Positions 1 to 64,000 of a stretch of 64,000 nt of DNA are shown here, one piece after another. The stretch covers positions 1,632,001 through 1,696,000 of the forward strand of contig OZ242011.1 of assembly GCA_965204755.1 (NCBI GenBank). Direction: 5' to 3'. The DNA is from Candidatus Marinacidobacterium sp. Its GTDB lineage: Bacteria > Acidobacteriota > Vicinamibacteria > Marinacidobacterales > Marinacidobacteraceae. Under the pieces are notes generated by a model. The model did no database searches. It was not told the DNA's origin and saw only the letters and a program-made list of their open reading frames with translations. The translations under genes were made by a program, and so were the position numbers. Each line of letters begins with the position of its first letter. Position 1 is the stretch's first letter.

Positions 1-1107
1 CAGGCGAAGCAGTGGGCGGAGCAGTCCGGGATTCCATACTGGCGCAACCCGGTCTCCAAGAACTCGCGCCCCTATCGCGGCCGGCGCGAATGCATCCGCT
101 GCGATACCTGCTCCATCTGCCCCACCGGGGCGAAGTACAGCCCGGACTTCACCTTCCGCCGGCTGCTCGACGAAGACCGGCTGACCCTCCACGACCGCAC
201 CATGGTGCGGCGACTCGTCACCGCGCCGGACTCGGACCGGATCGTCGAAGCGGAAGCGTTCCACCGGGACTCGCCGGACGAGACCGTCTCGGTGCGCGCC
301 CGCCATTTCGTCCTCGCCGCCGGCTACGCCTGGTCGTCCCACCTGCTGCTGGCTAGCGCCGGCGGCCGGTTCCCCGACGGTATCGCCAACCGGTCCGGAA
401 CGGTGGGCCGGTTCATCACCGGACACCGCTGGGTGAACGCCTTCGTCTCCGTCCCGATGCGGCTCTACCCCGGCGTGTACCGACAGGACAGCCTCCTCTC
501 GAAGCGTTTCCAGCACCGGGACGCCGAGGCCCAGCCGGACGGCAAGTACATCCGCCACGACCTCCGCATCTGGGAAGCGGACTACGGCCGCCGCGCCCGG
601 CTCCGCGACGACGACGGCCGGTTGCTGCTCGGGGACTCCGCGCTCGCCGACTGGCGGCGGCGCATCGAGACCGGATCGCTCCGAATGCGCGGCTACTACG
701 ATGTGATCCCCGCGCGGGAAAGCGCCCTCACCATCGAGCCGGGGCGAACGAATCCCTGGGGAATGCCGCTGCCGCGCATCGACTTCGCGGACGACCCGGT
801 CTCCGCCGACCTGCGCGGCTACACCGAGCAGAAGATCGAGGAGCGGTTCCGCAAAATCCTCCGCGCCGGCGGCGGCGAGTTGCTGGACATCGCGTTCGCC
901 TCCGACTACGACCACCCCGGCGGCGGCTGCCGGATGGGCGACGACCCGTCGGACAGCGTGGTGGATCCCTGGGGCCGGACGCACGACCACGAAAACCTCT
1001 GGATCGCCGGCGCCCCCACGATCGTCTCCTCCGGCTGCAACAACGGCACCCTCACCTTCTCCGCCCTCTCCCTCCGCACCGCCTCCCGCCTGGCCGCGGA
1101 ACTCTGA
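1..1107 (+). CDS. GMC family oxidoreductase (5'-partial)
   Basis: Frame open from base 1 (CIRCDTCSICPTGAKY...). GMC C-terminal motif HPGGGCRMGDDPSDSVVDPWGRTHDHENLWIAG. Confidence 0.9.
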   Translation, partial: QAKQWAEQSGIPYWRNPVSKNSRPYRGRRECIRCDTCSICPTGAKYSPDFTFRRLLDEDRLTLHDRTMVRRLVTAPDSDRIVEAEAFHRDSPDETVSVRARHFVLAAGYAWSSHLLLASAGGRFPDGIANRSGTVGRFITGHRWVNAFVSVPMRLYPGVYRQDSLLSKRFQHRDAEAQPDGKYIRHDLRIWEADYGRRARLRDDDGRLLLGDSALADWRRRIETGSLRMRGYYDVIPARESALTIEPGRTNPWGMPLPRIDFADDPVSADLRGYTEQKIEERFRKILRAGGGELLDIAFASDYDHPGGGCRMGDDPSDSVVDPWGRTHDHENLWIAGAPTIVSSGCNNGTLTFSALSLRTASRLAAEL

Positions 1108-1123
1108 GCACCCACCCTCTGCC

Positions 1124-3055
1124 GTGGCGAAGATCGAAGTAACCGGGACCGAACTGGTCTGGCCCGGAAAATACGACGACACCGGCCGACTCCGTCAGGC
1201 TCCTCGAGATGCACTGCCCTTCCAGATCATCGAAACAGTCAACGAGAGTCGAGTGGATCGGGAGCAGAGGAAGCGCCGCCGGCACTCCCTGTTCGATTAC
1301 TGGGAGGGCAAGGAAGGCGACACTTACGAGGAAGGATGGAGAAACAAACTGATCTGGGGAGACAACGAACTCGTCATGGGTTCGCTCTTGGAGAAGTTTG
1401 CGGGAAAGATCGATCTGATCTACATCGATCCGCCGTTCGCCACCCAGATGGACTTCTTGTTCAAGACCTATGTCGGGGAGGGCAAAACGGCGATCGACAG
1501 CAAGGGCTCGGCACGCGTGGTGTCCACCATGCAGCAGAAAGCCTATCGAGACACCTGGCGAGGCGGCTTGGACAGTTATCTCGAATACATGGTGCCGAGG
1601 CTTCAGTTGATGCGAGATCTCCTTTCTGCCCGCGGTTCGTTCTTCGTACATGTCGGCTTTCAGGTGAATCACTACTTGAGAGTCGCGATGGAGAACATTT
1701 TCGGCTCTGCGAATGTACTGGATGAGATCGTGTGGAGTTACGGTACTCCCTCAGGCGGTCGAGCGGCGGGCGACAAACTGATCAAGGCGCACGAGTACAT
1801 CATCTATGCCGTCAAGGAACGAGGAAGAAGCAAGTTCCACAAGACTCATCTCGAGTACTCCGAGAAGTACATCAGGGAGCGATTCAATCAGACCGATGAG
1901 GATGGACGCATCTATCGGACCCGCAAGCGAGGCGCGGTCGTTGAGCGTCAGTACTTGGACGAGAGCAAGGGTGTGCCTCTGTCAACCGTATGGTCAGACA
2001 TCAAGCAGACTTATGCCATGCATCTCGCCAAGAGAGCAAAGGAGGAGACCGGTTTCCAAACACAAAAGCCCGAGGCCCTGTTGTCGCGTATCATCGAATT
2101 GGCCAGCGACTCCGGCGATCTCGTAGCCGACTTCTTTTGTGGCTCGGGAACGACGGTGGCTGTCGCCGAGAGACTCGGACGCCGATGGATCGGGTGCGAT
2201 CTCGGTCGGTGGGGTATCCATGTTACGCGCAAGCGCCTGCTCGGTTTGCCCGGATGCCGACCGTTCGATGTGATGAATCTCGGCAAGTACGAACGCCAGT
2301 ACTGGCAGGGGGCGCAATTCGGCCTGAAGGAGGGCGCGGATGCGACTGAGCGGGTCATCTATGAGTACATCGCCTTTATCCTGAAACTCTACCGCGCCCA
2401 ACCAGTTGCGGGCATGAAGCATCTACACGGTCGCAAAGGAGCGGTCATGGTGCATGTCGGCGCCGTCGATGCGCCTGTCACCTTCGCCGAAGTGGAGAGC
2501 GCCGTGGAGGAGTGCCGCAAGGTCGGCCAGAAGGAACTTCATGTCTTGGGATGGGAGTGGGAGATGGGGTTGGCCGGCCCCAACAAGGAGGGGGAACGGG
2601 GCGGTCTGACACAGCAGCACGCCGAGCGAGACGGGATTCGGCTTCGGCTGAAGCGCATTCCTCAAGAGGTGATGGATGTGGCGGCTTCCGACAGGAGCGT
2701 CCGTTTCTTCGAACTGGCGTATGTGGACGCGGTGGCGAAGAGCGACGAAAGTGGGCGGGTTCACGTGCGACTTCGAGACTTCGTCGTACCGCACGGCGAT
2801 CCTGAGACCAAGGAGGTACGCGAGAAGATCACGAAGTGGATGGACTGGGTGGACTACTGGGCCGTTGACTGGGATTTTCGGGAGGACACCTTCCGGCAGG
2901 GGTGGGTGGCGTATCGGACTCGTACGGAGCGCTCTCTTCCGGAGCAGAGCGATCCGCATGAGTACGGTAAGCCGGGGAATTACCGAATTCTCGTGAAGGT
3001 CGTGGACATCTTCGGGAACGACACTTCGCTGCCGCTCGATGTGAAGGTCGGTTAG
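1124..3055 (+). CDS. mod: Type III-like R-M DNA methyltransferase (N6/N4 MTase, Mod)
   Basis: IDLIYIDPPF catalytic motif precedes TQKPEALL and DFFCGSGTT SAM motif (beta order). C-terminal extension ends VKVVDIFGNDT. Directly upstream of a Res-type helicase. Confidence 0.9.
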   Translation: MAKIEVTGTELVWPGKYDDTGRLRQAPRDALPFQIIETVNESRVDREQRKRRRHSLFDYWEGKEGDTYEEGWRNKLIWGDNELVMGSLLEKFAGKIDLIYIDPPFATQMDFLFKTYVGEGKTAIDSKGSARVVSTMQQKAYRDTWRGGLDSYLEYMVPRLQLMRDLLSARGSFFVHVGFQVNHYLRVAMENIFGSANVLDEIVWSYGTPSGGRAAGDKLIKAHEYIIYAVKERGRSKFHKTHLEYSEKYIRERFNQTDEDGRIYRTRKRGAVVERQYLDESKGVPLSTVWSDIKQTYAMHLAKRAKEETGFQTQKPEALLSRIIELASDSGDLVADFFCGSGTTVAVAERLGRRWIGCDLGRWGIHVTRKRLLGLPGCRPFDVMNLGKYERQYWQGAQFGLKEGADATERVIYEYIAFILKLYRAQPVAGMKHLHGRKGAVMVHVGAVDAPVTFAEVESAVEECRKVGQKELHVLGWEWEMGLAGPNKEGERGGLTQQHAERDGIRLRLKRIPQEVMDVAASDRSVRFFELAYVDAVAKSDESGRVHVRLRDFVVPHGDPETKEVREKITKWMDWVDYWAVDWDFREDTFRQGWVAYRTRTERSLPEQSDPHEYGKPGNYRILVKVVDIFGNDTSLPLDVKVG

Positions 3056-3057
3056 CC

Positions 3058-5817
3058 GTGGCGCGAGCACTCTTCGTCTATGACAGGCGCCTTCCGGAGA
3101 TCACCGGTCGGCGGCCGTGGGAAAAGCCAACTTCGCATCTGGTCAAGACGGACGAGGCGCCGGAGTGGAGTCGCGAAGACGGTCGGAGGCCGAGCGAGCG
3201 GTTGCTCGTGCCGAAGATCCGGGAGGCGGTGGACCGGTGGCGGGACGGGGGCTATTCGTCGGCGTCTGAAGTGACCCGGCGTCTCTTCCGCCACTGGTTC
3301 GAGGAAGATCACTCGGTGACCGGCTACGACCAACCGTTCCGGTTCCACTTCGGACAGCGGGAAGCCATCGAGACACTGGCTTGGCTCGTCGAGTGCTCCG
3401 GCGTCCGGGACACGAAGGCCCTGATTTCGCAGTACGGAAGCGTTGGGGACGCCGGTCTCTTCCAGAACCACGGTTGCTTCCAGACGACCATGGACGGAGT
3501 GCGGCAGTGGCTCGGGCCTTCGGGGTCGCAGGATCTGCCCGCCCGGAACCTGCGCCGCTACGCGTTCAAGATGGCGACCGGCGCCGGAAAGACCTGGGTG
3601 ATGGCGATGATCGTCGTGTGGGCGTGGTTCCACTCCCGGCGCGTTCCACGCTCTCCGCTGTCGAGGAACTTCCTGATCGTCGCGCCGAATGTCATCGTGT
3701 ACCAGCGTCTCGAGAAGGACTTCGCGAACGCTCGGCTCTTCCGCGACCTGCCCCTGATTCCGCCGGAATGGACGGGCGAATTCACTCCGCGGATCATCCT
3801 TCGCGGCGAGGCGACGGAGCCGAGCCCGTCCGGCAACATCTTCCTGACCAACATCCAACAACTGCACCAACGCGAGGAATCGTGGACACCGGCGAATCCG
3901 GTACAAAAGTGGTTGGGGCCGAAGCCGAAGCCGGGCCTGCTCGGCGGACTTCCGATGTTGGATCGGGTGAAGTCGTTGTCGGACCTGGTGGTCATGAACG
4001 ACGAAGCCCACCATGTCCACGACGAGGAACTCGCCTGGAACCGATCACTGGGCAGCCTCCATAACGCACTGCCGCACGGACTTTCGGCGTGGCTCGATTT
4101 CTCTGCGACGCCCAAGGACCAAAACGGGAACTACTTTCCTTGGACGGTCTGCGATTATCCGCTTGCGCAGGCGGTGGAGGATCGAATCGTCAAAGTGCCG
4201 CTTCTCGTGGATGCCCGATCTGCGGACGGAGGGGAGCCTCAAGATCCGGACGGACTCACTCGGGAAAATGTCGCGGAGAAATGCGACGACTGGCTGCAGG
4301 CGGCGACAGCACGCCTGCAGCGGCACGAGGAAGTGTGTCGAGAACTGGCGGTCCGTCCCGTCCTCTTCATCATGGCCGACAAGAACGCGCACGCGGATGC
4401 TATCGGCACCCATCTTCGCAAGTCGGATCAGTTCGATCTGAAGGAAGAAGAAGTCCTGGTGATCCATACCAAGGGTGACGGCGAGATCACGAAGGGTGAC
4501 CTGGAGAACGCGCGCCGGGCAGCCGGGAACATCGATAGCGCAACGAGCCGCATCCGGGTCATCGTCAGCGTAATGATGCTCCGGGAAGGGTGGGATGTCC
4601 GCAATGTCACCGTGGTTCTGGGGCTGCGCGCGTTTTCCGCCCAGTCGAAGATCCTCCCGGAGCAGGTGATCGGGCGCGGTCTGCGTCTGATGCGGGATGT
4701 GAGTCCTGACCGGACACAGACGCTGGAAGTCCTCGGCACGAGGAATCTGCTGGAGGTTCTACGCGAACAGTTGGAGGCGGACGGCGTAGGTATCGGCGCC
4801 GCGAGTGTCGCCGAACTACCACACGAACTCGTCATCCGGCCGGTCGCCGAGCGCATGAACTACGACATCGCCGTGCCGATCACCAAACCGAGCCTCACGA
4901 GGAATGTGCGGCGGCTGGACGAGTTGAGTCCTCTCGAACTGGATGCCGTCGGTGGCGATGTGGACCTATCGAGAGCCCATAGCATCAGTGTGTCCGTCAG
5001 GGAGCAAGTAACCGATGCGACCGTTCACACGGAGACCGTCAGCCGGGAGGCGGCGACGAGGTCGGAGGAGTCCGTGGCGGCCATCGTCCGTCAGGTCATG
5101 GATCGATGCGGCCTACCGACTGCGTTCTCGGTGCTGTACCCGAAGGTCAAGCAGTATGTGGAGCAGAAGTGCTTCGACAGATCGGTGTCCGTAGATGATG
5201 AGGTCGTCCGCTCGCACTTGGCGCGAGAAGAACTCCGGGAACGCATCGCGGCGTATCTCGTGGAAGTCGTCGGAGCCTTGACGGCGGAGCAGAAGCCGAT
5301 CGCCTTCAAGGAGGAGCGATTCCGGCTGTCGGGCACGAAGCCGTTCCGCTGGCGTCGGAACCTGCCGCCGCCGTGCGAGGCCACCAAGACGGTCTTCAAC
5401 TATGTGGCGACCTGGAACGACTTCGAGCGGCGGTTCGCCGGTTTTCTCGACCGGGCGAAGGACATCGCCCGTTTCTCGGCCTTGGGCACGACCGAGCAGG
5501 GGACCTCGGGAACGACCTTTCGGATCGACTATCTCAAGCCCAGCGGAGCGATCGGGTTCTACTACCCGGACTGGGTGGCCGTTCAGTCGACGGAGGATGG
5601 AGATATCCACTGGATCATCGAGACCAAGGGCCGCGTCTTTGCGGGCACGAAGGAGAAGGACGAAGCCATGCGCGCCTGGTGCGAGCGCGTAGAGGAGGCC
5701 ACTTCGGAGCCATGGCGGTATGTACGGATCAATCAGGGCGACTTCGACGAGTCCGCGGATGCGGAGACGCTCGCCCGGCTGTTGGAGAGCACCGGATCGC
5801 CGGGGATGCTCGACTGA
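3058..5817 (+). CDS. res: Type III restriction endonuclease subunit (SF2 helicase + PD-(D/E)XK nuclease)
   Basis: MATGAGKT, NDEAHH, FSATP, MLREGWD, EQVIGRGLR. C-terminal YYPDWV...IIETKG. Confidence 0.9.
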   Translation: MARALFVYDRRLPEITGRRPWEKPTSHLVKTDEAPEWSREDGRRPSERLLVPKIREAVDRWRDGGYSSASEVTRRLFRHWFEEDHSVTGYDQPFRFHFGQREAIETLAWLVECSGVRDTKALISQYGSVGDAGLFQNHGCFQTTMDGVRQWLGPSGSQDLPARNLRRYAFKMATGAGKTWVMAMIVVWAWFHSRRVPRSPLSRNFLIVAPNVIVYQRLEKDFANARLFRDLPLIPPEWTGEFTPRIILRGEATEPSPSGNIFLTNIQQLHQREESWTPANPVQKWLGPKPKPGLLGGLPMLDRVKSLSDLVVMNDEAHHVHDEELAWNRSLGSLHNALPHGLSAWLDFSATPKDQNGNYFPWTVCDYPLAQAVEDRIVKVPLLVDARSADGGEPQDPDGLTRENVAEKCDDWLQAATARLQRHEEVCRELAVRPVLFIMADKNAHADAIGTHLRKSDQFDLKEEEVLVIHTKGDGEITKGDLENARRAAGNIDSATSRIRVIVSVMMLREGWDVRNVTVVLGLRAFSAQSKILPEQVIGRGLRLMRDVSPDRTQTLEVLGTRNLLEVLREQLEADGVGIGAASVAELPHELVIRPVAERMNYDIAVPITKPSLTRNVRRLDELSPLELDAVGGDVDLSRAHSISVSVREQVTDATVHTETVSREAATRSEESVAAIVRQVMDRCGLPTAFSVLYPKVKQYVEQKCFDRSVSVDDEVVRSHLAREELRERIAAYLVEVVGALTAEQKPIAFKEERFRLSGTKPFRWRRNLPPPCEATKTVFNYVATWNDFERRFAGFLDRAKDIARFSALGTTEQGTSGTTFRIDYLKPSGAIGFYYPDWVAVQSTEDGDIHWIIETKGRVFAGTKEKDEAMRAWCERVEEATSEPWRYVRINQGDFDESADAETLARLLESTGSPGMLD

Positions 5818-27914: not shown

Positions 27915-28364
27915 CTATACACGATTCGCGCCACCTATACACAATACGGGGCAGCTATACACAATTCCCGTCAGCTATACACAATTCCCGTCAGCTATAC
28001 ACAATTCCAGTCAGCTATACACAATTCCCCTCGGCTATACACAATTCGGCGGCAGCTATACACAATTCCGCGCCGGCTATACACAATTCGCTCGCACCTA
28101 TACACAATTCCGCGTCGGCCATACCCGGTCGATCCTGTCCGTAAACGATCCGCCACTTCACCCTCAGGGCTCGTTTTCGGCCTTACGAGCCCCCGGAGGC
28201 GACATCCATGGGCGCACTTCGGTCGCCGGCGAGTACTTGCGCAGGGTTGCGCGCCGCGCCGCCGCGCCGCGCCCGACCGAACCCGGCCACCTATACACAA
28301 TTCCCGATGCAGCTATACACAATTCGCGCCGGCTATACACAATTCGGGCAGCTATACACAATTC
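27915..28364. repeat. Phased direct-repeat array, 14 x CTATACACAATT in two clusters (10 + 4)
   Basis: Copies at 27915, 27935, 27955, 27975, 27995, 28015, 28035, 28056, 28077, 28098, then 28291, 28313, 28333, 28352. Variable GC-rich spacers of 7-10 bp. Confidence 0.95.
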
Positions 28365-28471
28365 GCGCCGGCCTTCGCGGCGCCGAACGAGCCACTCCCG
28401 TCGCGTGGAAGAACGCTCGGCGCTCGCGCCGGACGACCGGCGGTCGGGCGCGTCGAGCCGGACCTGGATCG

Positions 28472-33036: not shown

Positions 33037-33067
33037 CCGAAATCTCACGCCCGCTTCGTCCTTCCGT

Positions 33068-34075: not shown

Positions 34076-34119
34076 GTAGTGTGTTCCTCCTTGAGGATCG
34101 ATGGTAGTTGGCGGGAAGG

Positions 34120-36672: not shown

Positions 36673-36838
36673 CGGACTCTCCCGTGGTGATCTCCGTTCG
36701 GAGGGGCCGGCCATCGTATCCGCCCGGCGCCGGGCGGCGCGAATACGATCCCCGACCCCGGCCGGCGTTCGCGGCGCGGCGCGGCGTCCACCCCCGCCCG
36801 GCCCGCCGCCGGATCGGCCTCCGCCGAGGACTCGCCAC

Positions 36839-38440
36839 ATGCGCCCCGAATCCCGCTCCACTCCGCCGCTGCCGAACGCCGGCGCCCTCCGCCGCGCGGC
36901 CCCGGTCGCCGGACTGCTCGCCCTCGCCCTCGCCTGCGGCGGCGCCGCGCCGGAACCCGAACCCGAACCGGCCGCCGAAGCGCCGGTCCGCACCGCGGAT
37001 CCGTTCGCCCGAGGGCTCACCGAGGCCGACTTCCCCCGCACCCGGGAACTCGCGCCCGGCGTCCATTCCTACGAACAACTGCGCGCCGCCGGGGAGGAGT
37101 TGTTCACCACGGTCAGCCTGTTCGTGGTCACCGACGCCGGCGTCCTCGTCGCCGACGGGCAGGGAAACTTCGAGGAAACCGCCCGGCTGGTGGCCGAGAT
37201 CGGCGCGATCACCGACCGGCCCATCACCCATGTCGTCGTCGCTTCCGACCACGGCGACCACACCGCCGGGAACGCGGCGTTCCCCGAAGGCGTGGAATTC
37301 ATCGTCCACGAGAACTCCGTCCCGGCGATGGAGGCGCTCGGCGAACGCATCCCCGACCTGCCGATGCCGCAGACGGTGATCGGCGACGCGCACGACCTCG
37401 ACCTCGCCGGCCGCCGCATCGAGATCCGGTTCCTCGGCCGCGCCCATACCGGCGGCGACCTCGTGGTCCACCTCCCGGTGGAGGGCGTCCTGTTCCTGAC
37501 CGAGGCCTACCTCCACCGGATCTTCCCCGCGATGCGGTCGGCGTATCCGTCGGAGTGGGTCGCGATGCTGCGCCGCGCGCAGGCGCTCGACGCCGAGTGG
37601 AACATCCCCGGCCACGGTTTCGTGGACGACCCGGAAGTCCTGCGCGAAGAACTCGGCGCCGCCGTCGCCGCGCTGGAGACCGTGATCGCCGAAGCCACCC
37701 GCCTCCACGGCATGGGCCTCAGCCTCGAAGAGGCGGAGCAGCAGGCGGACTTCGGCGACCTCGAGACCTGGTCGCTCCGCGACAGCCAGCGCGCCGGCGC
37801 CATCGCCCGCGTCTATATGGAGTTGAACGGCGAACTCCCCGACTCGCCGTCACGCGGCCCGGGAGCGCCGGTATCCTCCGCTTCCCCCGCCTCTTCTTCC
37901 GAAACCCGAGACACCCGAACACCGGAGGGCCGACCGATGACCGCACCTGACAACGCCAACCCGACCCGCGCCGCCGACGGGGAGACCCCCGAGAGCGTCG
38001 TGGCGGCGCTGTACGCCTCCGTTACCGGCCCGGCCGGCGCGGAGAGGGACTGGGCGCGGTTCCGGTCGCTCTTCGCGCCGGGCGCCCGGCTGATGATGGT
38101 CCTCCCCGGCGAGGACGGCCGCAACACCGTGAGGCGCCTCACCCCGGAGGAGTACGAGTCCGAAGCGATGGAACACCGCGCGTTCGACGGCGGCTTCTTC
38201 GAGTACGAGACCGGCGGCGTCTCCGAAGCGCACGGCGCCATCGCGCACCGTTTCGGCAGTTACGCCGTCTATCGCTCGAAGGACGACGAAGAACCGCTGG
38301 GCCGGGGCCTCACCACCTCCCAGTTCGTCCACGACGGGGAGCGCTGGCGCCTGCTCTCGTTCCTCTGGCAGGACATCGCCCCCGGCGACCCGCTCCCCGC
38401 CCGCTACCTGGACACCCCGCCGGCCGCGGACCCGCGCTGA
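36839..38440 (+). CDS. MBL-fold hydrolase lipoprotein reading in-frame into an NTF2-like domain
   Basis: Lipobox LALAC. SDHGDH, AHTGGD, IPGHG. Internal RBS + ATG at 37937 begins a DWARFRSLF-type domain. Confidence 0.75.
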   Translation: MRPESRSTPPLPNAGALRRAAPVAGLLALALACGGAAPEPEPEPAAEAPVRTADPFARGLTEADFPRTRELAPGVHSYEQLRAAGEELFTTVSLFVVTDAGVLVADGQGNFEETARLVAEIGAITDRPITHVVVASDHGDHTAGNAAFPEGVEFIVHENSVPAMEALGERIPDLPMPQTVIGDAHDLDLAGRRIEIRFLGRAHTGGDLVVHLPVEGVLFLTEAYLHRIFPAMRSAYPSEWVAMLRRAQALDAEWNIPGHGFVDDPEVLREELGAAVAALETVIAEATRLHGMGLSLEEAEQQADFGDLETWSLRDSQRAGAIARVYMELNGELPDSPSRGPGAPVSSASPASSSETRDTRTPEGRPMTAPDNANPTRAADGETPESVVAALYASVTGPAGAERDWARFRSLFAPGARLMMVLPGEDGRNTVRRLTPEEYESEAMEHRAFDGGFFEYETGGVSEAHGAIAHRFGSYAVYRSKDDEEPLGRGLTTSQFVHDGERWRLLSFLWQDIAPGDPLPARYLDTPPAADPR

Positions 38441-38464
38441 GGACCACCCTCGGGGCGGCTCCGC

Positions 38465-38908
38465 TCACTCGATTCGGCAGGCGTCCCGCGTCAGCAGTCT
38501 CTTGTTTCTCGCGCCGGAGTAGATCTTGCCTCGCGGTTCTCCGAGGATCTTCCGGTTCTTGAAGTCGGCGATCAGATCTGCGTCACCGCTGTACAACAAG
38601 CGCGCTCCGCTCACCTTGGCGAGAGCGAGCACATGAGTGTCGTTCGATCGGGTGACACCCTCCGACTTCAGTCTGCGCACTTCGTCCTCTACCTGCTCGT
38701 CGGGAACTCTGCTCGCCTGTCCGGCCCGCGAATATTCCAAGAGTCGGCTCTTCGCGGCCCGATACAGTTCGTCTGCGAATGCGCCGCCCGTTGAGAACGC
38801 CAAGTTGCCCCACCCTCTTCGCAGCCACCGATGAATCGGCGCCGCATCGGGAGTTTCCGGCTTCGCCAAGAAATCGCCCAAGCGGTTCGTATCCACGATC
38901 ATGCACAT
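38465..38908 (-). CDS. PIN-like domain protein
   Basis: MIVDTN, SNDTHVLALA, LLYSGD..L..DF. Confidence 0.75.
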   Translation of the reverse strand: MCMIVDTNRLGDFLAKPETPDAAPIHRWLRRGWGNLAFSTGGAFADELYRAAKSRLLEYSRAGQASRVPDEQVEDEVRRLKSEGVTRSNDTHVLALAKVSGARLLYSGDADLIADFKNRKILGEPRGKIYSGARNKRLLTRDACRIE

Positions 38909-38918
38909 GATGGGGCGC

Positions 38919-40265
38919 TCAGCTTCCGAAACCGAGCACCAGGTCGGTCTCGCGCAGGAAGAAGTCTCGGTATCCGGCAGGGGCGTTCCGGATGTTTCCG
39001 TAATCGTCCAACCGAAGGTCGTGGATCTTCACCGCGTTCTTCTTCGGCTCGAAATAGAGGATGGACACATCGTTGGCGCTGATCAACTTCTTCCGCACGG
39101 ACACACGGATCCGATCCACGATGTAGTCGCTGTGAGTCTCAACGAAGAAGCGGTGGCGCCGACTGCGTACCGAGTTGACGAAGAAGGTCCCGAGTTCCGC
39201 TTGGCCTCGGGGGTGCAGATGCACCTCCGGCTGCTGCATCAGGAACAGGGACGGCTGACGATGACGGGTTCGCCGCGCCAACCCTCCGTTGACTCCCGGC
39301 GCCAGGAGTTCGACCAAGATGGGAAGACTCTGGCTCACGCCATAGCCCACATCCATGAGGTTTGCATGCGAGCCGGAATGCGCCTTGACTTGCAATTGGA
39401 AGGGATCACTGATCTGCTTTCCGTGACGCTTCACGCGGATGTCGGAGAACAGCCCGGCCGCTCGTCCGAATTCAACGAGATCTCTCTGGAGTTCGGCCCA
39501 CGCCGGGCCTTCCGAGTGGTCAAGGCGCATCATGAGCATCGGGATGTGCTCGCCCTCGGGCGTAGCGGCTTCCCGGATGGGATCGTAAGTCCGACGCGGT
39601 TTGGCTCGAAGCGGGGCGACCGGTACCAAAGGAAGGCCGGGTGACAGGTTGTCGAGAACAGTCCGGCGACGGCCGTCGGAGGGCTTCGTCAACCGCCGAA
39701 CGAACTCGGTGACAGGTCGGATATCGGGATAGCGTCGCTCGAGGGGATCGCCCACATCCGATACGAAGAAGGGCAGTGTCGCGAGCGAGAACGGGAGGTC
39801 GGTTTCAGCTCGATGGCCGTCAATGGCGACGATCGTGCCATCTTGGGCGTCAGGTCGGAACTCCAGGAATCCTTCGGAACCGAATTCGTAGCGCCAAGAC
39901 ATCAGGGTCGGTTGGGATCCTTCCTCTCGGAAGGTGGCGACGACTCGATACGGCCGTGCTATCCCGTCGGCCGCGCTGGGCATTCCGAAGCCGATCCTGA
40001 ACTCGCGGATGCGCCCGGCGCTGCCGCGACGGGAACGAACGATGTCCCGGAACGAGCCCATCGAGAACGGTTCGAGATTGAAGTCGACCGGAGGCGCACC
40101 GAAGTGCGCTTCCAGCATTCGGTGCAGTGCGCTGTAACAGCCGAGGAAGGTGGTTTTCCCCGTGCTGTTTTCTCCCACGAGAAGGGTGATCGGGCTCAGG
40201 CGTGCCCGTTGAACACCCTGGAAGCACCGAACATCTTCCAGAAGGAGTTCTGTCGGTGGGGACAT
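38919..40265 (-). CDS. ABC-type ATPase (AAA_21/DUF3696-like)
   Basis: LVGENSTGKTT, DVGYGVSQ, LMQQPEVHLHP, VETHSD. Confidence 0.88.
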   Translation of the reverse strand: MSPPTELLLEDVRCFQGVQRARLSPITLLVGENSTGKTTFLGCYSALHRMLEAHFGAPPVDFNLEPFSMGSFRDIVRSRRGSAGRIREFRIGFGMPSAADGIARPYRVVATFREEGSQPTLMSWRYEFGSEGFLEFRPDAQDGTIVAIDGHRAETDLPFSLATLPFFVSDVGDPLERRYPDIRPVTEFVRRLTKPSDGRRRTVLDNLSPGLPLVPVAPLRAKPRRTYDPIREAATPEGEHIPMLMMRLDHSEGPAWAELQRDLVEFGRAAGLFSDIRVKRHGKQISDPFQLQVKAHSGSHANLMDVGYGVSQSLPILVELLAPGVNGGLARRTRHRQPSLFLMQQPEVHLHPRGQAELGTFFVNSVRSRRHRFFVETHSDYIVDRIRVSVRKKLISANDVSILYFEPKKNAVKIHDLRLDDYGNIRNAPAGYRDFFLRETDLVLGFGS

Positions 40266-40465
40266 GACGCCTACGATATCTTGAGGACGGGCTACAGCCG
40301 GTGAGGAGAGTCGAGGAGCGGGACGCAGCGGCCGCTCGGTGGAACCGGGAGGTTACCGAATCGGCGTCGTCGGCGCGACTGACGGATCGGCGTCGGTCGG
40401 GCCCGCACGCGGGAGTGGCCGACCGCAGCGGCGCGGCTCGTCCGGAGCGCCCGTGGCATTCGTCC

Positions 40466-41683
40466 CTACCCCAGCAATCCCAAAACCCGCGCCAGTTGGC
40501 GGACCGACAGGCCGGAGATCACCAGCACCACGATGACGCCCAGCACATTGGCGAGCCGGGAGTTGCAGTACTTCCCCATGATCCGTTCGCGGTTCACGAC
40601 GATCAGCAGCAGCACCAGCGTGAGCGGCAGGACGATGCCGTTCCCGGCCTGCGCGAGCAGGATCACCTGGTAAGGCGACGCGCCGAGCGTCACGCCGCAG
40701 ACGATCCCGGTCAGCAGCACGAACGCCCACAGCATCCGGAACCGGGGGCTCTTGAGGTCCGAGCCCCAACCGAGCGCGCCGGAGGCGGCGTAGGCCCCGG
40801 CGAGCGGCGCGGTGATCGCGGAAGTCAGCCCCGCCGCGAACAGCCCCAACCCGAAGAACAGCGGCGCCGCGCGGCCGAGCAGCGGTTCGAGGCGCTGCGC
40901 CACCGTCGCCGCGTCGGCGGCTTCCGCTCCCTGCCCGAGCAGCGGCGAAGCGGACACCACCACCGCCGCCGTGATCAGGCCGCCGAGCGCCACCGAGAAC
41001 ACCGTGTCCGAACGGCTCTCGCGGATGTTGTCGTCGTTCTTGGACGCGTCCGGCCAGCGCTCCATCGTGGTGCTGGCGTGGAGGAACAGGTTGTAGGACA
41101 CCACCGTCGTCCCGATGAGCGCGAGTACCGGCAGGAGCGCGCCGTCGGGAATGCTCGGGATGAACAGCCCGGACAGCAGGTCGCCGGGCGACGGGAAGGT
41201 CAGCACCGCGACCAGCAGGAAGACGATGCTCATCAACCCGACCAGCGCCACGAGCACATTCTGGATGGCCTTGTAGGTGCCGGTGAGCAGCAGCGCCCCG
41301 GCGAAACCGCCCACGACCAGCACCAGGACCTCCTGCGGGAGCCCGCTCAGCAGGCTGACGCCGAGCGACGCGCCGAGCAGGTTGCCGGTCTGGAAGGCGG
41401 CGTTCCCGACGAGGATGGTTACCGCGATCAAACCCAGCACGATCACCCGCGCCGTGGGATCCGCCAGACTGTCGCGGATCGCCTCGGCGAGGCCGCGCCG
41501 TCCGGCGAGTCCCACCCGCGCCGCCATGTCCTGCAGGATCATGGTGGCGATCACCGAGAAGAGGACCGCCCACAGCAGCGCGGTGCCGTAACCGGCGCCG
41601 GCGCGGCTGGCGGTGACGATCGTCCCCGGCCCGATGAAGGCGGCGGTGACCAGGAAGCCGGGGCCGACTCGAAACTTGCTCAT
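40466..41683 (-). CDS. Nramp-family divalent metal transporter
   Basis: AAFIGPGT, multiple TMs, GTTVVSYNLFLH, AQAGNG. Confidence 0.88.
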   Translation of the reverse strand: MSKFRVGPGFLVTAAFIGPGTIVTASRAGAGYGTALLWAVLFSVIATMILQDMAARVGLAGRRGLAEAIRDSLADPTARVIVLGLIAVTILVGNAAFQTGNLLGASLGVSLLSGLPQEVLVLVVGGFAGALLLTGTYKAIQNVLVALVGLMSIVFLLVAVLTFPSPGDLLSGLFIPSIPDGALLPVLALIGTTVVSYNLFLHASTTMERWPDASKNDDNIRESRSDTVFSVALGGLITAAVVVSASPLLGQGAEAADAATVAQRLEPLLGRAAPLFFGLGLFAAGLTSAITAPLAGAYAASGALGWGSDLKSPRFRMLWAFVLLTGIVCGVTLGASPYQVILLAQAGNGIVLPLTLVLLLIVVNRERIMGKYCNSRLANVLGVIVVLVISGLSVRQLARVLGLLG

Positions 41684-41705
41684 GGAGGGGTCCTCCCGTG
41701 CCTAT

Positions 41706-41731
41706 GTTGACAGGCGGGGTTGACAGGCGGG
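41706..41731. repeat. 13-bp tandem duplication GTTGACAGGCGGG
   Basis: Two adjacent copies in the intergenic gap. Confidence 0.7.
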
Positions 41732-41745
41732 GCCGGTGGGGGCGG

Positions 41746-43365
41746 TCAGTTTCGCAGGTCGGCGGCGATCACGCGCGCCGCGTTGCGCCCGGAGATGAGG
41801 TGGAGGCCGCCGTACGGCGCCGTTCCCGGCCCGGCGAGGTAGAGCCCGCCGACCGGCGTCCGATGCCGCGCGAATCCGGGAACCGGACGCAGCGAATACA
41901 GCTGGTCGAGCGTCGGCTCCCCCTGGTGGAAACTGCCCTCGGCCAGGCCGAACCCGGTCTCCAGCGCCGCCGGCGAGACCACCCGGCGCCCGATGACCAG
42001 GTCGCGGATCCCGGGGAAGGCGCGTTCCAGCATCCGGAGCGCCGCCTCCGCCAGGCGCTCCTCGGCCCGGCGGGCCGGGGTTCCCCAGCCCCCGTCCTCC
42101 CGGAGGTCGTAGGGCGCGGACTGGACGGTCGCCGCCAGCGTGTGCCGCCCCGGCGGGGCGAGGCCGGAGGCGTGGGCCGAGGGGAGGAACGCGAAGACCA
42201 GCGGGTCGGCGGCGATCCGGCCGTACTTCGCCGCGTCCGCCGCCCGCTCCAGGTGGTCGAGGGTGGCGCCGATCTGGACGATCCCGTCCAGGCGCGGGTC
42301 GTCCGCTTCCCCCGCCGGCGCGTCGGCGAATCGCGGCCGGCCGGAGAGCGCGAACCCGATCCGGGCGGCCGTTCCCCGGTAGCGGATGCGCCGCGCCTCG
42401 TGGACGAACTCCGGTTCCAGCCGGGCCGCGCCCACCCATTCGAGCAGCGTGGCCCTCGGCGAGGCGTCGGAGACCACGGCGCCGCAGCGCGCCGTCCGCC
42501 CGTCCCGGAGTTCCACGCCGACCGCGCGCGGGCGGCCGCCGGGGCCGGGTTCCGTCAGGACGCGGCGAACCCCGCCGGAGCCGCTCTCGAAGTGGACTCC
42601 GGCGGCGCGCGCCGCTTCCCGGAGCGCCTCCCCCACCGCGGTCGCGCCCCCCTTCGGCGGCCGCAGGAAGCCCAGCGGCTCCGACGAACCGAAGGCGTGG
42701 AAGTGGAGGAAGAGCCCGGCGGTCCCCGGCGCCCGCGGCCCGAGCCGGATCCCGGTGAGCGCCGGCCCGGCCAGCGCCGCCTTCAGCGGTTCGGACTCGA
42801 ACCGGTCGTCCAGGTAGTCCCGGAGGGCCATCGGCAGCGCTTGGAGCAGCGCGCCGATCCCCCGGCCGCCGAGCCCCAGCGCCGAGACCGCGGCCCGCGC
42901 CGCTTCCGGCAACTTCGAGTCCAACTCGAGCGGCGGGCGGAGCGCCAGCCCGCGCAGGAAGTTGGCGGCGGCGTCCAGTTCCGCGGCGAACTCCGGGAAC
43001 CGGGAGGCGTCGGCGGCCGAGAGTCCGCCCGCCGCGCGCCGCGCCGCTTCCCGGCCGCGCGGCAGGCTGAAGGTCTCCCCGGTCTCCGGCGAGACGACGG
43101 TCAGCGCGGGGTCGGGAGCGAGGAACTCGAGACCGTGTTCCGCGAGTCCCAGTTCGCCGGCGGCGGTCGGGTCGAACGACGGCAGCGTCTCCGGCGCGAC
43201 CGGGAGGAGGAAGCCGGGCGCGATCTCGCAACTCGCCGCGACGCCGCCGGGTCGTCCGCGTTCGCCGACGACCAGCGCGCTCCGCCCGCCGCGGGCGAGC
43301 AGGATCGCCGCCGCGAGCGCGTCCGGGCCCCCGCCGACGGCGACGAGGTCGTAGCGGTCGCGCAT
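41746..43365 (-). CDS. Phytoene-dehydrogenase-like FAD oxidoreductase (divergent paralog)
   Basis: VGGGPDAL, GG..AV..AL, LYLAGPGT..YGG...ISGRNAA. Confidence 0.85.
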   Translation of the reverse strand: MRDRYDLVAVGGGPDALAAAILLARGGRSALVVGERGRPGGVAASCEIAPGFLLPVAPETLPSFDPTAAGELGLAEHGLEFLAPDPALTVVSPETGETFSLPRGREAARRAAGGLSAADASRFPEFAAELDAAANFLRGLALRPPLELDSKLPEAARAAVSALGLGGRGIGALLQALPMALRDYLDDRFESEPLKAALAGPALTGIRLGPRAPGTAGLFLHFHAFGSSEPLGFLRPPKGGATAVGEALREAARAAGVHFESGSGGVRRVLTEPGPGGRPRAVGVELRDGRTARCGAVVSDASPRATLLEWVGAARLEPEFVHEARRIRYRGTAARIGFALSGRPRFADAPAGEADDPRLDGIVQIGATLDHLERAADAAKYGRIAADPLVFAFLPSAHASGLAPPGRHTLAATVQSAPYDLREDGGWGTPARRAEERLAEAALRMLERAFPGIRDLVIGRRVVSPAALETGFGLAEGSFHQGEPTLDQLYSLRPVPGFARHRTPVGGLYLAGPGTAPYGGLHLISGRNAARVIAADLRN

Positions 43366-47592: not shown

Positions 47593-47660
47593 GCGACGAG
47601 ACTCTATCTCCGACTTCCGGCAAACCGTCGGTCTCCTCTGAACGAGGCGGAGTGGGCAGA

Positions 47661-47701
47661 ATGATTATCGAAAACAATATAATGATGACTACGATAATCA
47701 T
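47661..47701. promoter_or_regulatory. Inverted repeat flanking a TATAAT box and overlapping the ATPase start codon
   Basis: ATGATTATCG-N21-CGATAATCAT, with TATAAT at 47678-47683. Confidence 0.6.
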
Positions 47702-49082: not shown

Positions 49083-49149
49083 ACCGCCGGCCGTCGAACC
49101 GCCGACGGGGAATGCGGTCACATTCCGCGAAGGCGCTCCGTCCCGGCGC

Positions 49150-51881: not shown

Positions 51882-52711
51882 CGGGACGGCCCTCCCTCGG
51901 GACCGCGCAGCGTGGCCAAGTAAGCGACCAGGTCGTCGAGTTCGTCGTCGCCGAAGTCCGCGTAACTCATCATCAGGCTCTCCTCCGGCAGGAGTTCGAA
52001 CCGGCGGATCTCGGTCTTGCGGAACGACCGCAGTCGGCCCGCCTGGTCGAGGATCTGGATGGTGAAGGTGTCTTCGTTCATCCGGACGCCCATGGTTTCG
52101 GCGCCGCCGGCGTCTTCCACGAGGACGGTCCGGTAGCGCGGCGTCACCGAGGCGGCGGGATCGCGGATGGACTCCCGCAGGTGTTCGCTCCCGCGAAGGA
52201 GCCCGATGTCGGAGAGGTCGGGGCCGAAGGCGATGCCTTCGCCGTTCACCACATGGCAGGTGGAACAGAGCGTCGCGTCGTAGAGGTCCCGTCCCCGCGC
52301 CGGGTCGCCGGGCAGGTCTTCGCGGGCCACCGTGCCGAGCGACCGCACATAGGCGGCCACGCCCCGGATCTCCTGCCCGTTCAGCGTCCACGCGCCGGGC
52401 ATGTCGGTCCCGTCGATGCCGTCCTCCACGATGGACAGCAGCGCTTCGTCGGTCGTCGAACGCCGCAGGTTCTCCCGCATCAGGTTGGGCCCTTCGCCGC
52501 CGACCCCGCCGAGGCCGTGGCACCGGGAGCAGTGGATGTCGAAGAGGCGTTGCCCCTGCGTCAGTTCCTCCGGCGCGGCTTCGTCGAGCGGCGGGCCGGT
52601 CTGTCGTTCGGCCGCGGCGGCCCCGGCGGGGGCCGCGGCGAGCGCCGCGCCCAGCAGCCAGGCGCCTCCGGCGCGCCCGCCCCGTTCCGGGAGTCGGATG
52701 AGTCTTTCCAT
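51878..52711 (-). CDS. Di-heme cytochrome c
   Basis: CSRCH and CSTCH motifs, GPDLSDIG. Overlaps the PQQ gene start. Confidence 0.88.
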   Translation of the reverse strand: MERLIRLPERGGRAGGAWLLGAALAAAPAGAAAAERQTGPPLDEAAPEELTQGQRLFDIHCSRCHGLGGVGGEGPNLMRENLRRSTTDEALLSIVEDGIDGTDMPGAWTLNGQEIRGVAAYVRSLGTVAREDLPGDPARGRDLYDATLCSTCHVVNGEGIAFGPDLSDIGLLRGSEHLRESIRDPAASVTPRYRTVLVEDAGGAETMGVRMNEDTFTIQILDQAGRLRSFRKTEIRRFELLPEESLMMSYADFGDDELDDLVAYLATLRGPEGGPSR

Positions 52712-52803
52712 TGGTCGCTCGCTCCTGTTCCGCGGACTGTACCAACCCCCTCCGGCCGACTACCATTCGGCGGCTTCCCCGCCCGCTGTCCCGAACCGGC
52801 GCC

Positions 52804-54003
52804 ATGCCCCGCGGCACCCCCTTCCACTCCCGCACCGCCCCGCTCTGCGGCAGTTACCGCTGGAAGGAGTGGGCCGGCTACTTCGTGGTGGAAGCCTTCG
52901 ACCGCTTCCACGATCCCGAATACCACGCCGTGCGCTCGGGCGCGGCGCTCTTCGATGTGTCGCCGCTCCACAAGTACGACATCCGGGGGCGGGACGCGAC
53001 GGCGTTCACCGACCGGCTCATCACGAGGAATGTGGCGCGGTCGAAACCCGGGCAGGTGCTCTACTCCGGGTGGTGCTCGTCGGACGGGAAACTGCTGCAG
53101 GACGGTTGCTTCCAGCGGTTCGCCGACGACCATGTCCGCGCCACCGCGGTGGACCCCACGCTGCCGTGGTTCGAATCGGTCGCCGAAGGCTTGGACGCGC
53201 GGATCGAAGATGTTTCGGAGGAACTCGCCGCGCTCGCGCTCCAGGGGCCGGCTTCGCACGCCGTCCTGAACGCGCTGGCCGACGACGACCTGTCCGGTCT
53301 CGGTTTCTTCCGGCTGCGCGAAACGCGGCTCGGCGGGCTCGCCGTCGTCGTGACCCGCACCGGCTATACCGGCGATCTCGGCTACGAACTCTGGGTGGAG
53401 CGTGATGCGGCGCCGGCGCTCTGGGACCTGCTGCTCGGAGCCGGGGAACCCATGGGTCTCCGTCCCGCGGGAATGCTCGCGCTCGACCGCGCCCGGGTGG
53501 AGGCCGGTTTCCCGTTGATCGATGTGGACTTTTGGAATGCCGACCACGCGCTCACCGAGGCGCAGAAGTCCACGCCGTTCGAGGTGGGGCTCGGCTGGGC
53601 GGTGAGCGCGAAGAAAGGCCCGTTCATCGGTCAGGCGGCGCTCGCGGCGGAGCGGGTGGGCGGGCCGGAACGATTCTTCGTCGGCATCGAAACCTCCATC
53701 CTCGAGTTGGAGCGCTTGTTCGCGCCGGATGGTCTGGCGCCCGAAGTCGGCGACGAAGTGGATCGGCGCGGCGTCCCGGTGTATTCCGGCGGTGAGCAGG
53801 TCGGACGCGCCACCAGCGTCTGCTGGTCGCCGCTGTTGAAACGCCTGCTCGCGCTCGCCACCGTGGATCGGGGTTACCAAGAACCGGGCACGCCGGTGGA
53901 GATCGAAGTCACCGTGGAGTACGAGCGCCGCCGCGCCCGCTCGAGGGTCGCCGCGCTGCCGTTCTTCGACCCGCCGAGGAAGCGCCGCGCGCCCGCCGCC
54001 TGA
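52804..54003 (+). CDS. GcvT-family aminomethyltransferase/demethylase
   Basis: EYHAVR..AALFDVS, LALQGP, RTGYTGDLGYE, RVEAG, PFFDP. Confidence 0.9.
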   Translation: MPRGTPFHSRTAPLCGSYRWKEWAGYFVVEAFDRFHDPEYHAVRSGAALFDVSPLHKYDIRGRDATAFTDRLITRNVARSKPGQVLYSGWCSSDGKLLQDGCFQRFADDHVRATAVDPTLPWFESVAEGLDARIEDVSEELAALALQGPASHAVLNALADDDLSGLGFFRLRETRLGGLAVVVTRTGYTGDLGYELWVERDAAPALWDLLLGAGEPMGLRPAGMLALDRARVEAGFPLIDVDFWNADHALTEAQKSTPFEVGLGWAVSAKKGPFIGQAALAAERVGGPERFFVGIETSILELERLFAPDGLAPEVGDEVDRRGVPVYSGGEQVGRATSVCWSPLLKRLLALATVDRGYQEPGTPVEIEVTVEYERRRARSRVAALPFFDPPRKRRAPAA

Positions 54004-62957: not shown

Positions 62958-63038
62958 CCGGCGAAGTATCCGCGCCCGCCGGGGGTCTTGTCTTCGGGGC
63001 GCGCGGCGCCGCCGGCATTCGGCGGCGGGCCGCCGGGG

Positions 63039-64000
63039 TTACCGCGCCGGAACCGCTCGGAGGATGTAATCCATCAGGCTGGGTATGCCGGGTTCCCAAT
63101 CCGGCATGCCGTCCGTCCGCCAGACGAAACCCAAGTGACGGAACTCCTGCTCGGCAGCCTCCGCCTCGTCATCGCCGGCGGCCTCGCCGAAACCCCGAAG
63201 GATGGCGGCGTCCAGTTCGCTGTCGGAGATGACGGAGCGCGACTCGAAGGCCTCCGCGACCGCCCGCGCCGGCCGTAGCAGTCTCCGTTCCTTCAGTTCG
63301 TCGTAGCGCTGGGAGTAATAGCGGTTCCTCTGTTTCTCGAAGACGGCCTGGCAAGCCGGCGCATCGTCGGAGACGATGCGTTCGCGGGATTCCGCGCGGG
63401 CTCGCACCCAAACGGCCTCGCCCCACAGTTGGACGAAGAAGGGATACGCGTCGCTCTCGCGAACGATGTGCTCCAGGGCGCCGTCCGTGATGGTGATGTC
63501 ATCTTCCCGGAGCGGCCTCCGGATCGCCTCCGCCGCGGCGCGTTCGTCGAGCCTCCCCAAACCGATGATCCGGCTGCGGCTCCGGAACGAAGATCCGAGC
63601 GTTCCCAAGCGGGAACACAGATCCGGGGTTCCCGCAAGCACCAGCAGGAACGGGGCATCCCGTCCTGCGAGTTGGGCCGCGTCGAGCAGGGCTCGGCCGA
63701 TCCCGGGTTGGAGCATGTGCGCTTCGTCCAGCAGGATCGCCAGCGGCTTCCGGTTGGCGCGTACGGAGAGGACGGATCGGATCCGGGGCGCCGGCCCGCT
63801 CCCGCCGGGCCGCCAGGTGAAGCCGCGAATCGCGTTCTCCTGCGGCCTTACGGTCTCCCACCAGCACTGGGGCAAAAGGAATTCGGCCAATTCCAACTCC
63901 GAATCGAAGTCCGAGGGCGTCAACTCCAGCACATCCACGCCGGAGAAAACCGCCCCTTCTTCTTGCACCCACGCCAGAAGCGCCGTCTTGCCGTTGCCGC
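63039..64000 (-). CDS. AAA/STAND-like ATPase (5'-partial)
   Basis: Walker A fragment GNGKT at the window edge. ILLDEAH, LAGTP, YPFFVQ. Confidence 0.8.
   Translation of the reverse strand, partial: GNGKTALLAWVQEEGAVFSGVDVLELTPSDFDSELELAEFLLPQCWWETVRPQENAIRGFTWRPGGSGPAPRIRSVLSVRANRKPLAILLDEAHMLQPGIGRALLDAAQLAGRDAPFLLVLAGTPDLCSRLGTLGSSFRSRSRIIGLGRLDERAAAEAIRRPLREDDITITDGALEHIVRESDAYPFFVQLWGEAVWVRARAESRERIVSDDAPACQAVFEKQRNRYYSQRYDELKERRLLRPARAVAEAFESRSVISDSELDAAILRGFGEAAGDDEAEAAEQEFRHLGFVWRTDGMPDWEPGIPSLMDYILRAVPAR

Follow-up and report, generated by a model that had tools for sequence, protein, structure and literature searches.

Near-complete purge of the tetramers AGCT and ACGT from a Candidatus Marinacidobacterium genome

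The 64-kb window and its remaining sites

The window, that is the whole stretch of 64,000 bp that was analysed, comes from contig OZ242011.1 (positions 1,632,001 to 1,696,000; GenBank assembly GCA_965204755.1) of Candidatus Marinacidobacterium sp., a member of the Acidobacteriota. It includes a type III restriction-modification (R-M) pair, a bipartite tandem array and a stretch of lower GC content (Table 1), and two palindromic tetramers, AGCT and ACGT, are almost missing from it. The original prediction, made from the sequence letters alone, was that both words had been purged nearly completely across the window, and this was borne out by counts far below those expected from a second-order Markov model (Table 1). 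At the window GC content of 69.5%, the zero-order expectation is 179.8 copies for AGCT and ACGT alike.

Table 1. Features of the 64-kb window. Positions are numbered from the first base of the window.
Feature	Position	Strand	Details
Window-wide depletion	1..64000		AGCT 12 observed, 119.9 expected; ACGT 3 observed, 137.4 expected (second-order Markov)
Type III R-M pair	1124..5817	+	Mod (N6_N4_Mtase) 1124-3055; Res (ResIII helicase and endonuclease domain) 3058-5817
Single residual ACGT	2763..2766		Inside the type III Mod gene
Bipartite tandem array	27915..28372	+	20-bp unit with core CTATACACAATTC; 10.3 and about 4 copies
Lower-GC stretch	33001..42000		GC 0.683; remaining 5 AGCT (33441, 33903, 38921, 39807, 41900)
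Recoded-gene example	52711..54000	+	GAT GTG at 52954; AAT GTC at 54252 in the next gene

Seven of the 12 AGCT copies (27953, 27973, 27993, 28013, 28054, 28311 and 28350) are in the tandem array, at the junction between units where CAG meets CTATAC. The lower-GC stretch, which holds the other five, also carries two of the three ACGT copies (33554 and 35785), and the genes within 33441..41903 include those for a peptidase S9 and an AAA_15/AbiEii-like ATPase. Positions 1-27000 and 42001-64000 combined contain no AGCT and one ACGT. All three ACGT sites and 11 of the 12 AGCT sites had been listed correctly in the original prediction, and only the AGCT at 41900 was overlooked. This site is polymorphic, as the contigs of three other sequencing runs have A for G at 41901, giving AACT.

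Other palindromes that had been described as common are indeed near expectation in the window, namely GATC (436 observed, 446 expected), TCGA (504, 441), CCGG (1268, 1120), GCGC (1171, 1111) and CATG (136, 163), except that GGCC is mildly under-represented (571 observed, 791 expected). The AT-richer codon junctions were also confirmed, with TAT GTG at 18568, TAT GTC at 19762, CAT GTC at 37229, and those at 52954 and 54252 as shown in Table 1. The type III system is present as described, and nothing ties it to AGCT or ACGT. It is context and is not implicated in the purge.

Codon choice and dipeptide composition across the genome

The depletion is genome-wide and not limited to the window. In the genome containing the window (designated G000; a single contig of 3,975,858 bp with 71.7% GC), ACGT occurs 265 times where the Markov model predicts 7147 copies (ratio 0.037) and AGCT 332 times where 7446 are predicted (0.045). 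These are the lowest ratios of all 256 tetramers, the next being CTAG at 0.13. Six-letter words containing AGCT or ACGT are at expectation given the inner tetramer, which indicates that the target is the bare 4-mer. For a codon-controlled comparison, a strict set of 1773 open reading frames (ORFs) was selected using criteria based on GC content at third codon positions (GC3), covering 2.53 Mb or 63.7% of the genome, and synonymous codons were permuted within each ORF in 20 shuffles. Against this control, AGCT was found 56 times for 5763 expected (0.010) and ACGT 71 times for 4463 expected (0.016). Hence, the codon-controlled ratios are nowhere near 1, no other tetramer is as depleted, and most relatives are without the depletion (see below), these being the points on which the original prediction had been made to depend.

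Within genes, codon choice at the affected junctions is nearly absolute. Before Val, Asp is encoded by GAT in 1666 of 1684 cases (10.4% elsewhere), Asn by AAT in 710 of 719 (5.7%), His by CAT in 567 of 572 (14.4%) and Tyr by TAT in 753 of 760 (9.5%), so that the share of T-ending codons for these residues is 98.7-99.1% before Val and about 6-14% elsewhere. Glu before a CTN Leu codon is GAA in 3089 of 3100 cases (32.6% before residues other than Leu), and Leu after an NAG codon is TTG in 1866 of 1904 cases (4.3% after other residues). Before T, AGC makes up only 16 of 5671 Ser codons and ACG only 17 of 3720 Thr codons, as opposed to 25.7% and 38.0%, respectively, elsewhere. A general preference for T-ending codons before T was considered as the cause and rejected; it exists in all codon families but is too weak, giving 4-22% T-ending codons rather than 99%. 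In every four-fold family, T-ending codons are several times commoner when the next codon begins with T or C than when it begins with A or G. For example, in the strict ORFs GCT accounts for 10.8% of Ala codons before T and 0.8-1.5% before A or G.

Some dipeptides have a banned word in their GC-preferred spelling, and these are themselves thinned. The observed/expected ratios in G000 are 0.48 for DV, 0.50 for HV, 0.62 for NV and 0.64 for YV, and these are among the lowest of all dipeptides. Values for EL and KL are 0.73 and 0.74, and QL is barely changed (0.93). When pooled, [DNHY]V is found 3735 times for 6970 expected (0.54) and [EQK]L 6758 times for 8772 expected (0.77). The comparison genomes, for which crude ORF calls were used, gave corresponding ratios of 0.50 and 0.75 (sister species G001), 0.68 and 0.85 (G005, where only ACGT is depleted), 1.05 and 0.98 (11 stretches from non-depleted members of the family), 1.14 and 0.93 (other families of the order), and 1.00 and 1.03 (six further Acidobacteriota of high GC content). 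A taboo at the level of DNA can therefore shift the statistics of protein sequence, with [DNHY]-Val being halved. Under a strict ban on the word, the formation of new Asp-Val junctions would be blocked in a background of 90% GAC while losses continue, and the dipeptide would become rarer. The loss of dipeptides thus appears to result from selection against the word and not from a hypermutable base. In G000, there is no increase in Asp-Ile (0.96) or Asp-Met (0.58).

Related genomes and the location of remaining sites

The depletion is lineage-specific, with both words affected in this genus and ACGT alone in two neighbouring genera. G001, which belongs to the same genus (16S 98.8% identical; approximately 71-85% nucleotide identity to G000 in alignable stretches), has ratios of 0.13 for AGCT and 0.10 for ACGT in the 200 kb sampled. 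In G005 (genus g5; 180 kb sampled), AGCT is normal at 49-65 copies per 20 kb and ACGT is at 0.15, and G007 (genus g7; 71 kb sampled) has AGCT at 0.96 and ACGT at 0.25. Both words are at about 1 in genera g2, g3, g4 and g6, in two other families of the order and in nine other Acidobacteriota, the single low value in this set being 0.74 for ACGT in G009. The genera of the family form a polytomy in an RpoB tree, with four forks below 80% support, and the loss of ACGT in g1, g5 and g7 may be shared or independent. The graded series formed by G000, G001, G005, G007 and the non-depleted genera could be used to date and quantify the cost per site. Independent of the AGCT/ACGT purge, a strong depletion of CTAG (about 0.04-0.5) extends across the sampled family and to other Acidobacteriota of high GC content.

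About 600 AGCT and ACGT sites persist in G000, and these concentrate where the sequence is constrained or newly imported. Among 199 bins of 20 kb, 47 are site-free and the 30 richest carry 55% of all sites. The 16S gene includes 6 AGCT and 4 ACGT (4-7 and 4-5 in four relatives), the 8-kb rRNA region 25 and 6, and the 67 tRNA genes 27 and 5, mostly in the TAGCTCAG D-arm. The rRNA and tRNA genes had been proposed as a check on the purge, and the 16S gene, with 10 sites, and the tRNA genes, with 32, have a normal density. Sites are present in only 115 of the 1773 strict genes, and the remaining 1658 have none. Local GC is below 0.68 at 48% of AGCT and 65% of ACGT sites, compared with 14% of random positions. 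Outside the window, a 31.8-kb ORF (approximately 10,600 codons, GC3 0.94; G000:C1:507404-539206) contains only 3 AGCT/ACGT sites.

The tandem array in the window is one of nine dispersed arrays that carry 70 of the 332 genomic AGCT copies. The other eight are near 357.9, 756.0, 1208.0, 2045.5, 2895.4, 2970.8, 3119.1 and 3494.2 kb (genome positions). Each of the nine has 9-14 copies of the unit, arranged in two blocks approximately 190 bp apart and sharing the invariant core. The flanks are unrelated between arrays, and the arrays are AT-richer than the genome. Judging from this organisation, they look like iteron or protein-binding arrays.

The normal density of sites in the 16S gene, the tRNA genes and the arrays indicates that the words are tolerated, and this argues against a technical origin of the purge, in which methylated AGCT and ACGT would be miscalled during sequencing or polishing and so be missing from the assembly. 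At methylated motifs, the consensus of long reads typically contains C/T and G/A errors, and the replacements seen here are of this kind. However, the conserved sites in the 16S and tRNA genes are read normally, and the replacements are nearly all synonymous, whereas miscalls would turn half of GAC GTN into GAC ATN, and neither Asp-Ile nor Asp-Met is raised. CTC is at 46.5% after Glu, Gln or Lys and at 51.5% elsewhere. Graded versions of the pattern are found in three other assemblies, and an 8704-base contig from a run belonging to a different study matches window positions 41883-50586 with zero differences. The tolerated sites, synonymous changes, graded relatives and identical independent contig together rule out an assembly artefact, and the probability left to miscalling is negligible.

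Probable selection on the words and candidate agents

Two explanations had been offered for the purge, deamination of 5-methylcytosine (m5C) and strong selection. The second is favoured here, and the first is disfavoured as a sole cause. Mutational decay would have eroded C5-methylated AGCT and ACGT through m5C to T changes, as in the loss of CpG from vertebrate genomes, with no selection involved. The genome does carry genes for six C5 methyltransferases (designated MT1 to MT6), and the most over-represented words in coding sequence are products of deamination, with ATGT at 2.40, AGTT at 1.94 and AACT at 1.75. Likewise, sites kept by G001 and lost in G000 have become AGTT or AACT in 12 of 20 cases for AGCT, and ATGT or ACAT in 8 of 17 cases for ACGT, and at one 16S position the three ACGT-depleted genomes in the comparison have ATGT where two others have ACGT. 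However, the transition products in coding sequence are also the sole synonymous escapes, and hence their excess favours neither explanation.

Codon phase is more informative. In phase 3 (NNA GCT and NNA CGT), both possible deaminations alter an amino acid, but GCT is found after an A-ending codon in only 11 of 5119 cases (0.2% versus 3.5%, a 17-fold depletion) and CGT in 15 of 4382 (0.3% versus 3.9%, 11-fold), the sites having been lost via the choice of flanking bases. Similarly, ACC and ACT, and not ACA, take the place of ACG before T, and although [DNHY]V is halved, Asp-Ile and Asp-Met, the sinks predicted under decay, are not raised. The short gaps between genes, 757 in number and 96 kb in total, contain 16 AGCT for 131 expected (0.12) and 5 ACGT for 121 expected (0.04), but the deamination products AACT, AGTT, ACAT and ATGT are at 0.88-1.25 and are not enriched. 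There are six matches to the repair endonuclease Vsr in G000, one of them broken by a TGA, and the five intact genes are 0.05-6 kb from MT1, MT2, MT3, MT5 and MT6, i.e. five of the six C5 methyltransferases. In addition, m5C hot spots in bacteria are not known to produce anything close to a depletion of 30- to 100-fold in genomes with a GC bias. Loss through flanking bases, the unenriched intergenic products and the presence of Vsr near five methyltransferases favour selection over decay of m5C, which is considered improbable. The depletion concerns the whole word and not the C alone.

Two further candidates were rejected. Over-correction by Vsr would raise the methylated word, and the T-to-C products that it requires, AGCC/GGCT or ACGC/GCGT, are unenriched. 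Host immune sensing of CpG motifs was discounted because AGCT contains no CpG. C5 methyltransferases are also present in G004 and G008, two non-depleted relatives that lack a Vsr match.

Restriction-type selection against the words AGCT and ACGT is, on balance, the probable explanation, and a nuclease would be the agent. Restriction-type activities recognising AGCT and ACGT would have been long resident in the lineage, and every chromosomal copy of a word would risk self-cleavage when protective methylation lags. Purifying selection could then have eliminated approximately 14,000 sites through whichever synonymous change was open. In GC-biased codons, junctions of the types [Asp/Asn/His/Tyr]-Val and [Glu/Gln/Lys]-Leu would hardly arise anew without the word, and these dipeptides would be thinned as a result. 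The survivors would be sites in constrained sequence (rRNA, tRNA, arrays) or in imported low-GC DNA, presumably under methylation. While selection at the level of the word fits the observations, the suggestion in the original prediction that absence of the motif serves as a mark of self under poor methylation gains no support from them, as some 600 sites persist and are tolerated.

Candidate agents were sought among the modification genes of G000, which include 25 matches to N4/N6 methyltransferases, one of them the Mod gene of the type III pair in the window, in addition to the six C5 enzymes. Of the C5 enzymes, only MT3 (1.26 Mb in the genome) and MT6 (1.52 Mb) keep their chromosomal position in G001, and MT1, MT2 and MT5 are without a counterpart among the three C5 methyltransferases of that species. 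MT3 is followed by genes for a 657-aa protein (PADLOC PDC-M33A, E 6e-93) and a 297-aa protein (PDC-M33B, E 2.5e-40), with a Vsr gene approximately 3 kb downstream of the latter. The methyltransferase, the GHKL ATPase and the 297-aa protein of this cassette are syntenic in G001, sharing 72, 59 and 54% identity, respectively. The structural model of the 657-aa protein (predicted local distance difference test score, pLDDT, 73.5) comprises a GHKL ATPase, a transducer domain and a C-terminal beta-sandwich, and its best Foldseek matches are Hsp90 and MutL-N. MT6 has three unannotated genes before it and a Vsr gene after it, and the whole cassette is present in G005, where the MT6 core is 78% identical. 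In G001, the position of MT6 is occupied by a divergent cassette with a methyltransferase that is only 42% identical, and this, in a stretch with 18 ACGT in 20 kb, looks like a recent cassette replacement (L170:4500-13000 in G001, L141:5018-10110 in G000). Four of the six C5 methyltransferases (MT3, MT4, MT5 and MT6) adjoin GHKL/HATPase-type ATPases, and MT4 additionally lies next to an N4/N6 methyltransferase and GmrSD.

The MT3 and MT6 cassettes, in each of which a C5 methyltransferase is accompanied by Vsr and a GHKL ATPase of the MutL/MORC-like kind, are tentative candidates for the agents of the purge. It is somewhat more doubtful that PDC-M33-type cassettes are working 4-bp restriction systems with leaky self-protection, MT3 recognising AGCT and MT6 recognising ACGT. 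If they are, such systems have rewritten approximately 14,000 codon junctions and shifted dipeptide composition, and the family represents a natural series of host-genome reshaping with both, one or neither of the words lost. The same series could be used to test GHKL-ATPase/methyltransferase/Vsr cassettes as agents. Among the depleted relatives, MT3 is confined to the AGCT-depleted genus and MT6-like enzymes to G000 and G005, with homologues elsewhere in G301, G392, G424 and G192. Carriers of MT3-like and MT6-like genes were each sought among 400 Acidobacteriota genomes, and the carrier genomes were sampled for tetramers.

A number of results weigh against restriction by these cassettes. The homologous cassettes in G301, G392, G424 and G192 leave AGCT and ACGT at 0.87-1.11. 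G301 has an intact MT3-like gene (60% identity) together with both partners, and its AGCT ratio is 0.96. MT6-like genes in G424 (61%), G392 (60%) and G192 (53%) are accompanied by ACGT ratios of 1.11, 1.08 and 0.94. As no sampled carrier is depleted, this test of specificity by association gave the assignment of the cassettes no support. Furthermore, the variable region of the enzyme at the MT6 position in G001 differs strongly (blocks of 18-34% identity), yet G001 is ACGT-depleted, and no C5 methyltransferase was found in the ACGT-depleted G007 assembly (86% complete, 410 contigs). Profile searches, which assign no specificity, identified no enzyme specific for AGCT or ACGT. The model of the 297-aa protein is a beta-sandwich with helices, and its structural matches are to beta-sandwiches only, none of them at E <= 0.001; neither MT3 partner has a recognisable nuclease fold, and no nuclease beyond Vsr was recognised in the cassettes. 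The 25 N4/N6 matches provide many other candidates, and the agreement between two cassettes and two words may be coincidence. Evidence for ongoing selection was also sought in strain differences. Among 40 of the 1188 differences, none creates a word and one removes the AGCT at 41900, but only 1.2 creations were expected, given that about 3% of differences would create a word if unconstrained, and 40 differences are too few to show ongoing selection.

Database searches added little on the genes that adjoin the candidate methyltransferases. Pfam, NCBIfam and PADLOC assigned them no specific family, and none resembles a known type II nuclease; across all the methyltransferase-adjacent genes, a nuclease was predicted only at MT1 (EcoRII-like) and MT4 (weak PD-(D/E)XK). 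MT3 and its partners have many homologues but no informative names, with all ESM Atlas clusters annotated as 'hypothetical protein', and a metagenome scan using MT3 recovered 3 distant loci with 26-30% identity.

That the cognate nuclease was not found is also what would be seen if the words had been purged by systems since lost or replaced, leaving a slowly relaxing footprint on which pressure no longer acts. According to Rusinov et al. 2015 (PMC4687349), avoidance is expected to outlast its system for a very long time. The weaker depletion in G001 (0.10 for ACGT, 0.13 for AGCT) and the divergent cassette at its MT6 position, within an ACGT-rich stretch (18 sites in 20 kb), are consistent with this. 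However, ratios of 0.010-0.016 in the strict genes, 1658 of 1773 of which are site-free, are near the floor and not relaxing, and the absence of the words from both G000 and G001 at approximately 71-85% identity requires either continued constraint in both or very slow regain. A relic is therefore considered unlikely.

Selection could also come from outside the R-M pairs of the organism. Type IV nucleases that are methylation-dependent could act on AGmCT and AmCGT made by invading methyltransferases, nuclease toxins of neighbours could target the words, or their absence could be of advantage in swapping DNA among strains with different systems. A GmrSD-type type IV enzyme does adjoin MT4, the genome is extremely rich in R-M genes, and homologous cassettes that occur elsewhere without depletion leave room for another agent. 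The organism or close strains are present in runs labelled sponge or marine metagenome (labels only), and defence systems are dense in such habitats. However, no specific gene or target ties outside selection to AGCT or ACGT, and the 600 or so persisting sites, dense in rRNA and tRNA genes, show that the words are not lethal. The depletion also follows lineage and not habitat, as sister genera from similar habitats, according to GenBank record titles, are undepleted. Outside selection is accordingly rated very unlikely, and restriction-type selection by long-resident activities is retained as the working explanation.

The purge is an extreme example of a known phenomenon, the avoidance of palindromes that resemble restriction sites. 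Avoidance of R-M recognition sites in host genomes was reportedly described by Gelfand and Koonin in 1997 and by Rocha et al. in 2001. As in those cases, short palindromes are under-represented here far below composition- and codon-controlled expectation, and sites persist where they are constrained or recently acquired. What is unusual is how extreme the effect is for two tetramers at once, that only a few genera are affected, that relatives can lose one word without the other and that dipeptides are measurably changed. Rusinov et al. (PMC4687349) use a ratio below 0.78 as the threshold for avoidance, whereas here both tetramers have ratios of 0.04 across the genome and 0.01 within genes, with approximately 99% T-ending codons at affected junctions, a measurable dipeptide shift, and cognate enzymes that are only candidates. 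They also indicate that only long-resident systems leave avoidance and recent ones no trace. In agreement with this rule, CCWGG is unavoided in G000 (0.94) despite an EcoRII-like system (MT1) that is found only in this genome and for which CCWGG is the presumed site. No published description of an AGCT/ACGT purge was found in literature searches on R-M avoidance of these words and on Marinacidobacterium.

The words themselves are those of AluI-type (AGCT) and MaeII/HpyCH4IV-type (ACGT) systems, purged here as bare tetramers, although the genes that flank the candidate methyltransferases show no similarity to known type II nucleases. A review table (PMC11033074) lists N4-methylcytosine (m4C) and m5C methyltransferases for AGCT and a predicted m5C enzyme for ACGT. 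Iyer, Abhiman and Aravind 2008 (PMC2292703) predicted an R-M function for neighbourhoods in which a GHKL ATPase is encoded together with a cytosine methylase and an endonuclease of the Vsr family. The MT3 cassette is similar to these MORC/paraMORC and PDC-M33 systems in its cytosine methyltransferase, GHKL+S5 ATPase and Vsr, with the PDC-M33A match (E 6e-93) and a fold like that of Hsp90 and MutL. It differs in that those systems, as far as was found, are only predicted and are not known to have a defined specificity or phenotype, that their connection with the purge is circumstantial, and that four other genomes with homologous cassettes are undepleted. No paper on PDC-M33 or Marinacidobacterium was found in literature searches, which did not cover supplementary files.

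The purge also bears comparison with CpG loss and with the depletion of CTAG in E. coli, as methylation-linked distortions of short words, and CTAG is low here too (0.13), family-wide. Depletion of CTAG in E. coli is said to have been attributed to very-short-patch repair by Bhagwat and McClelland in 1992. Here, in contrast, sites are lost via flanking bases, products are unenriched in non-coding DNA and repair genes are present, and over-correction by Vsr would enrich the methylated word, not deplete it. Palindrome avoidance is usually mild, and its origin in selection or mutation is usually difficult to establish. The near-total effect on two tetramers in this genome is strong enough for word-level selection to be told from deamination by means of dipeptides, codon phases and the products found between genes. 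In practice, k-mer binning and models of codon usage will be distorted by the bias when applied to these genomes.

Other palindromes are also moderately to strongly depleted in the genome, including GTCGAC (416 observed, 2076 expected; 0.20), CTCGAG (0.50), CCCGGG (0.57), GGWCC (0.64) and GTAC (0.65), and these are probably the footprints of other restriction systems.

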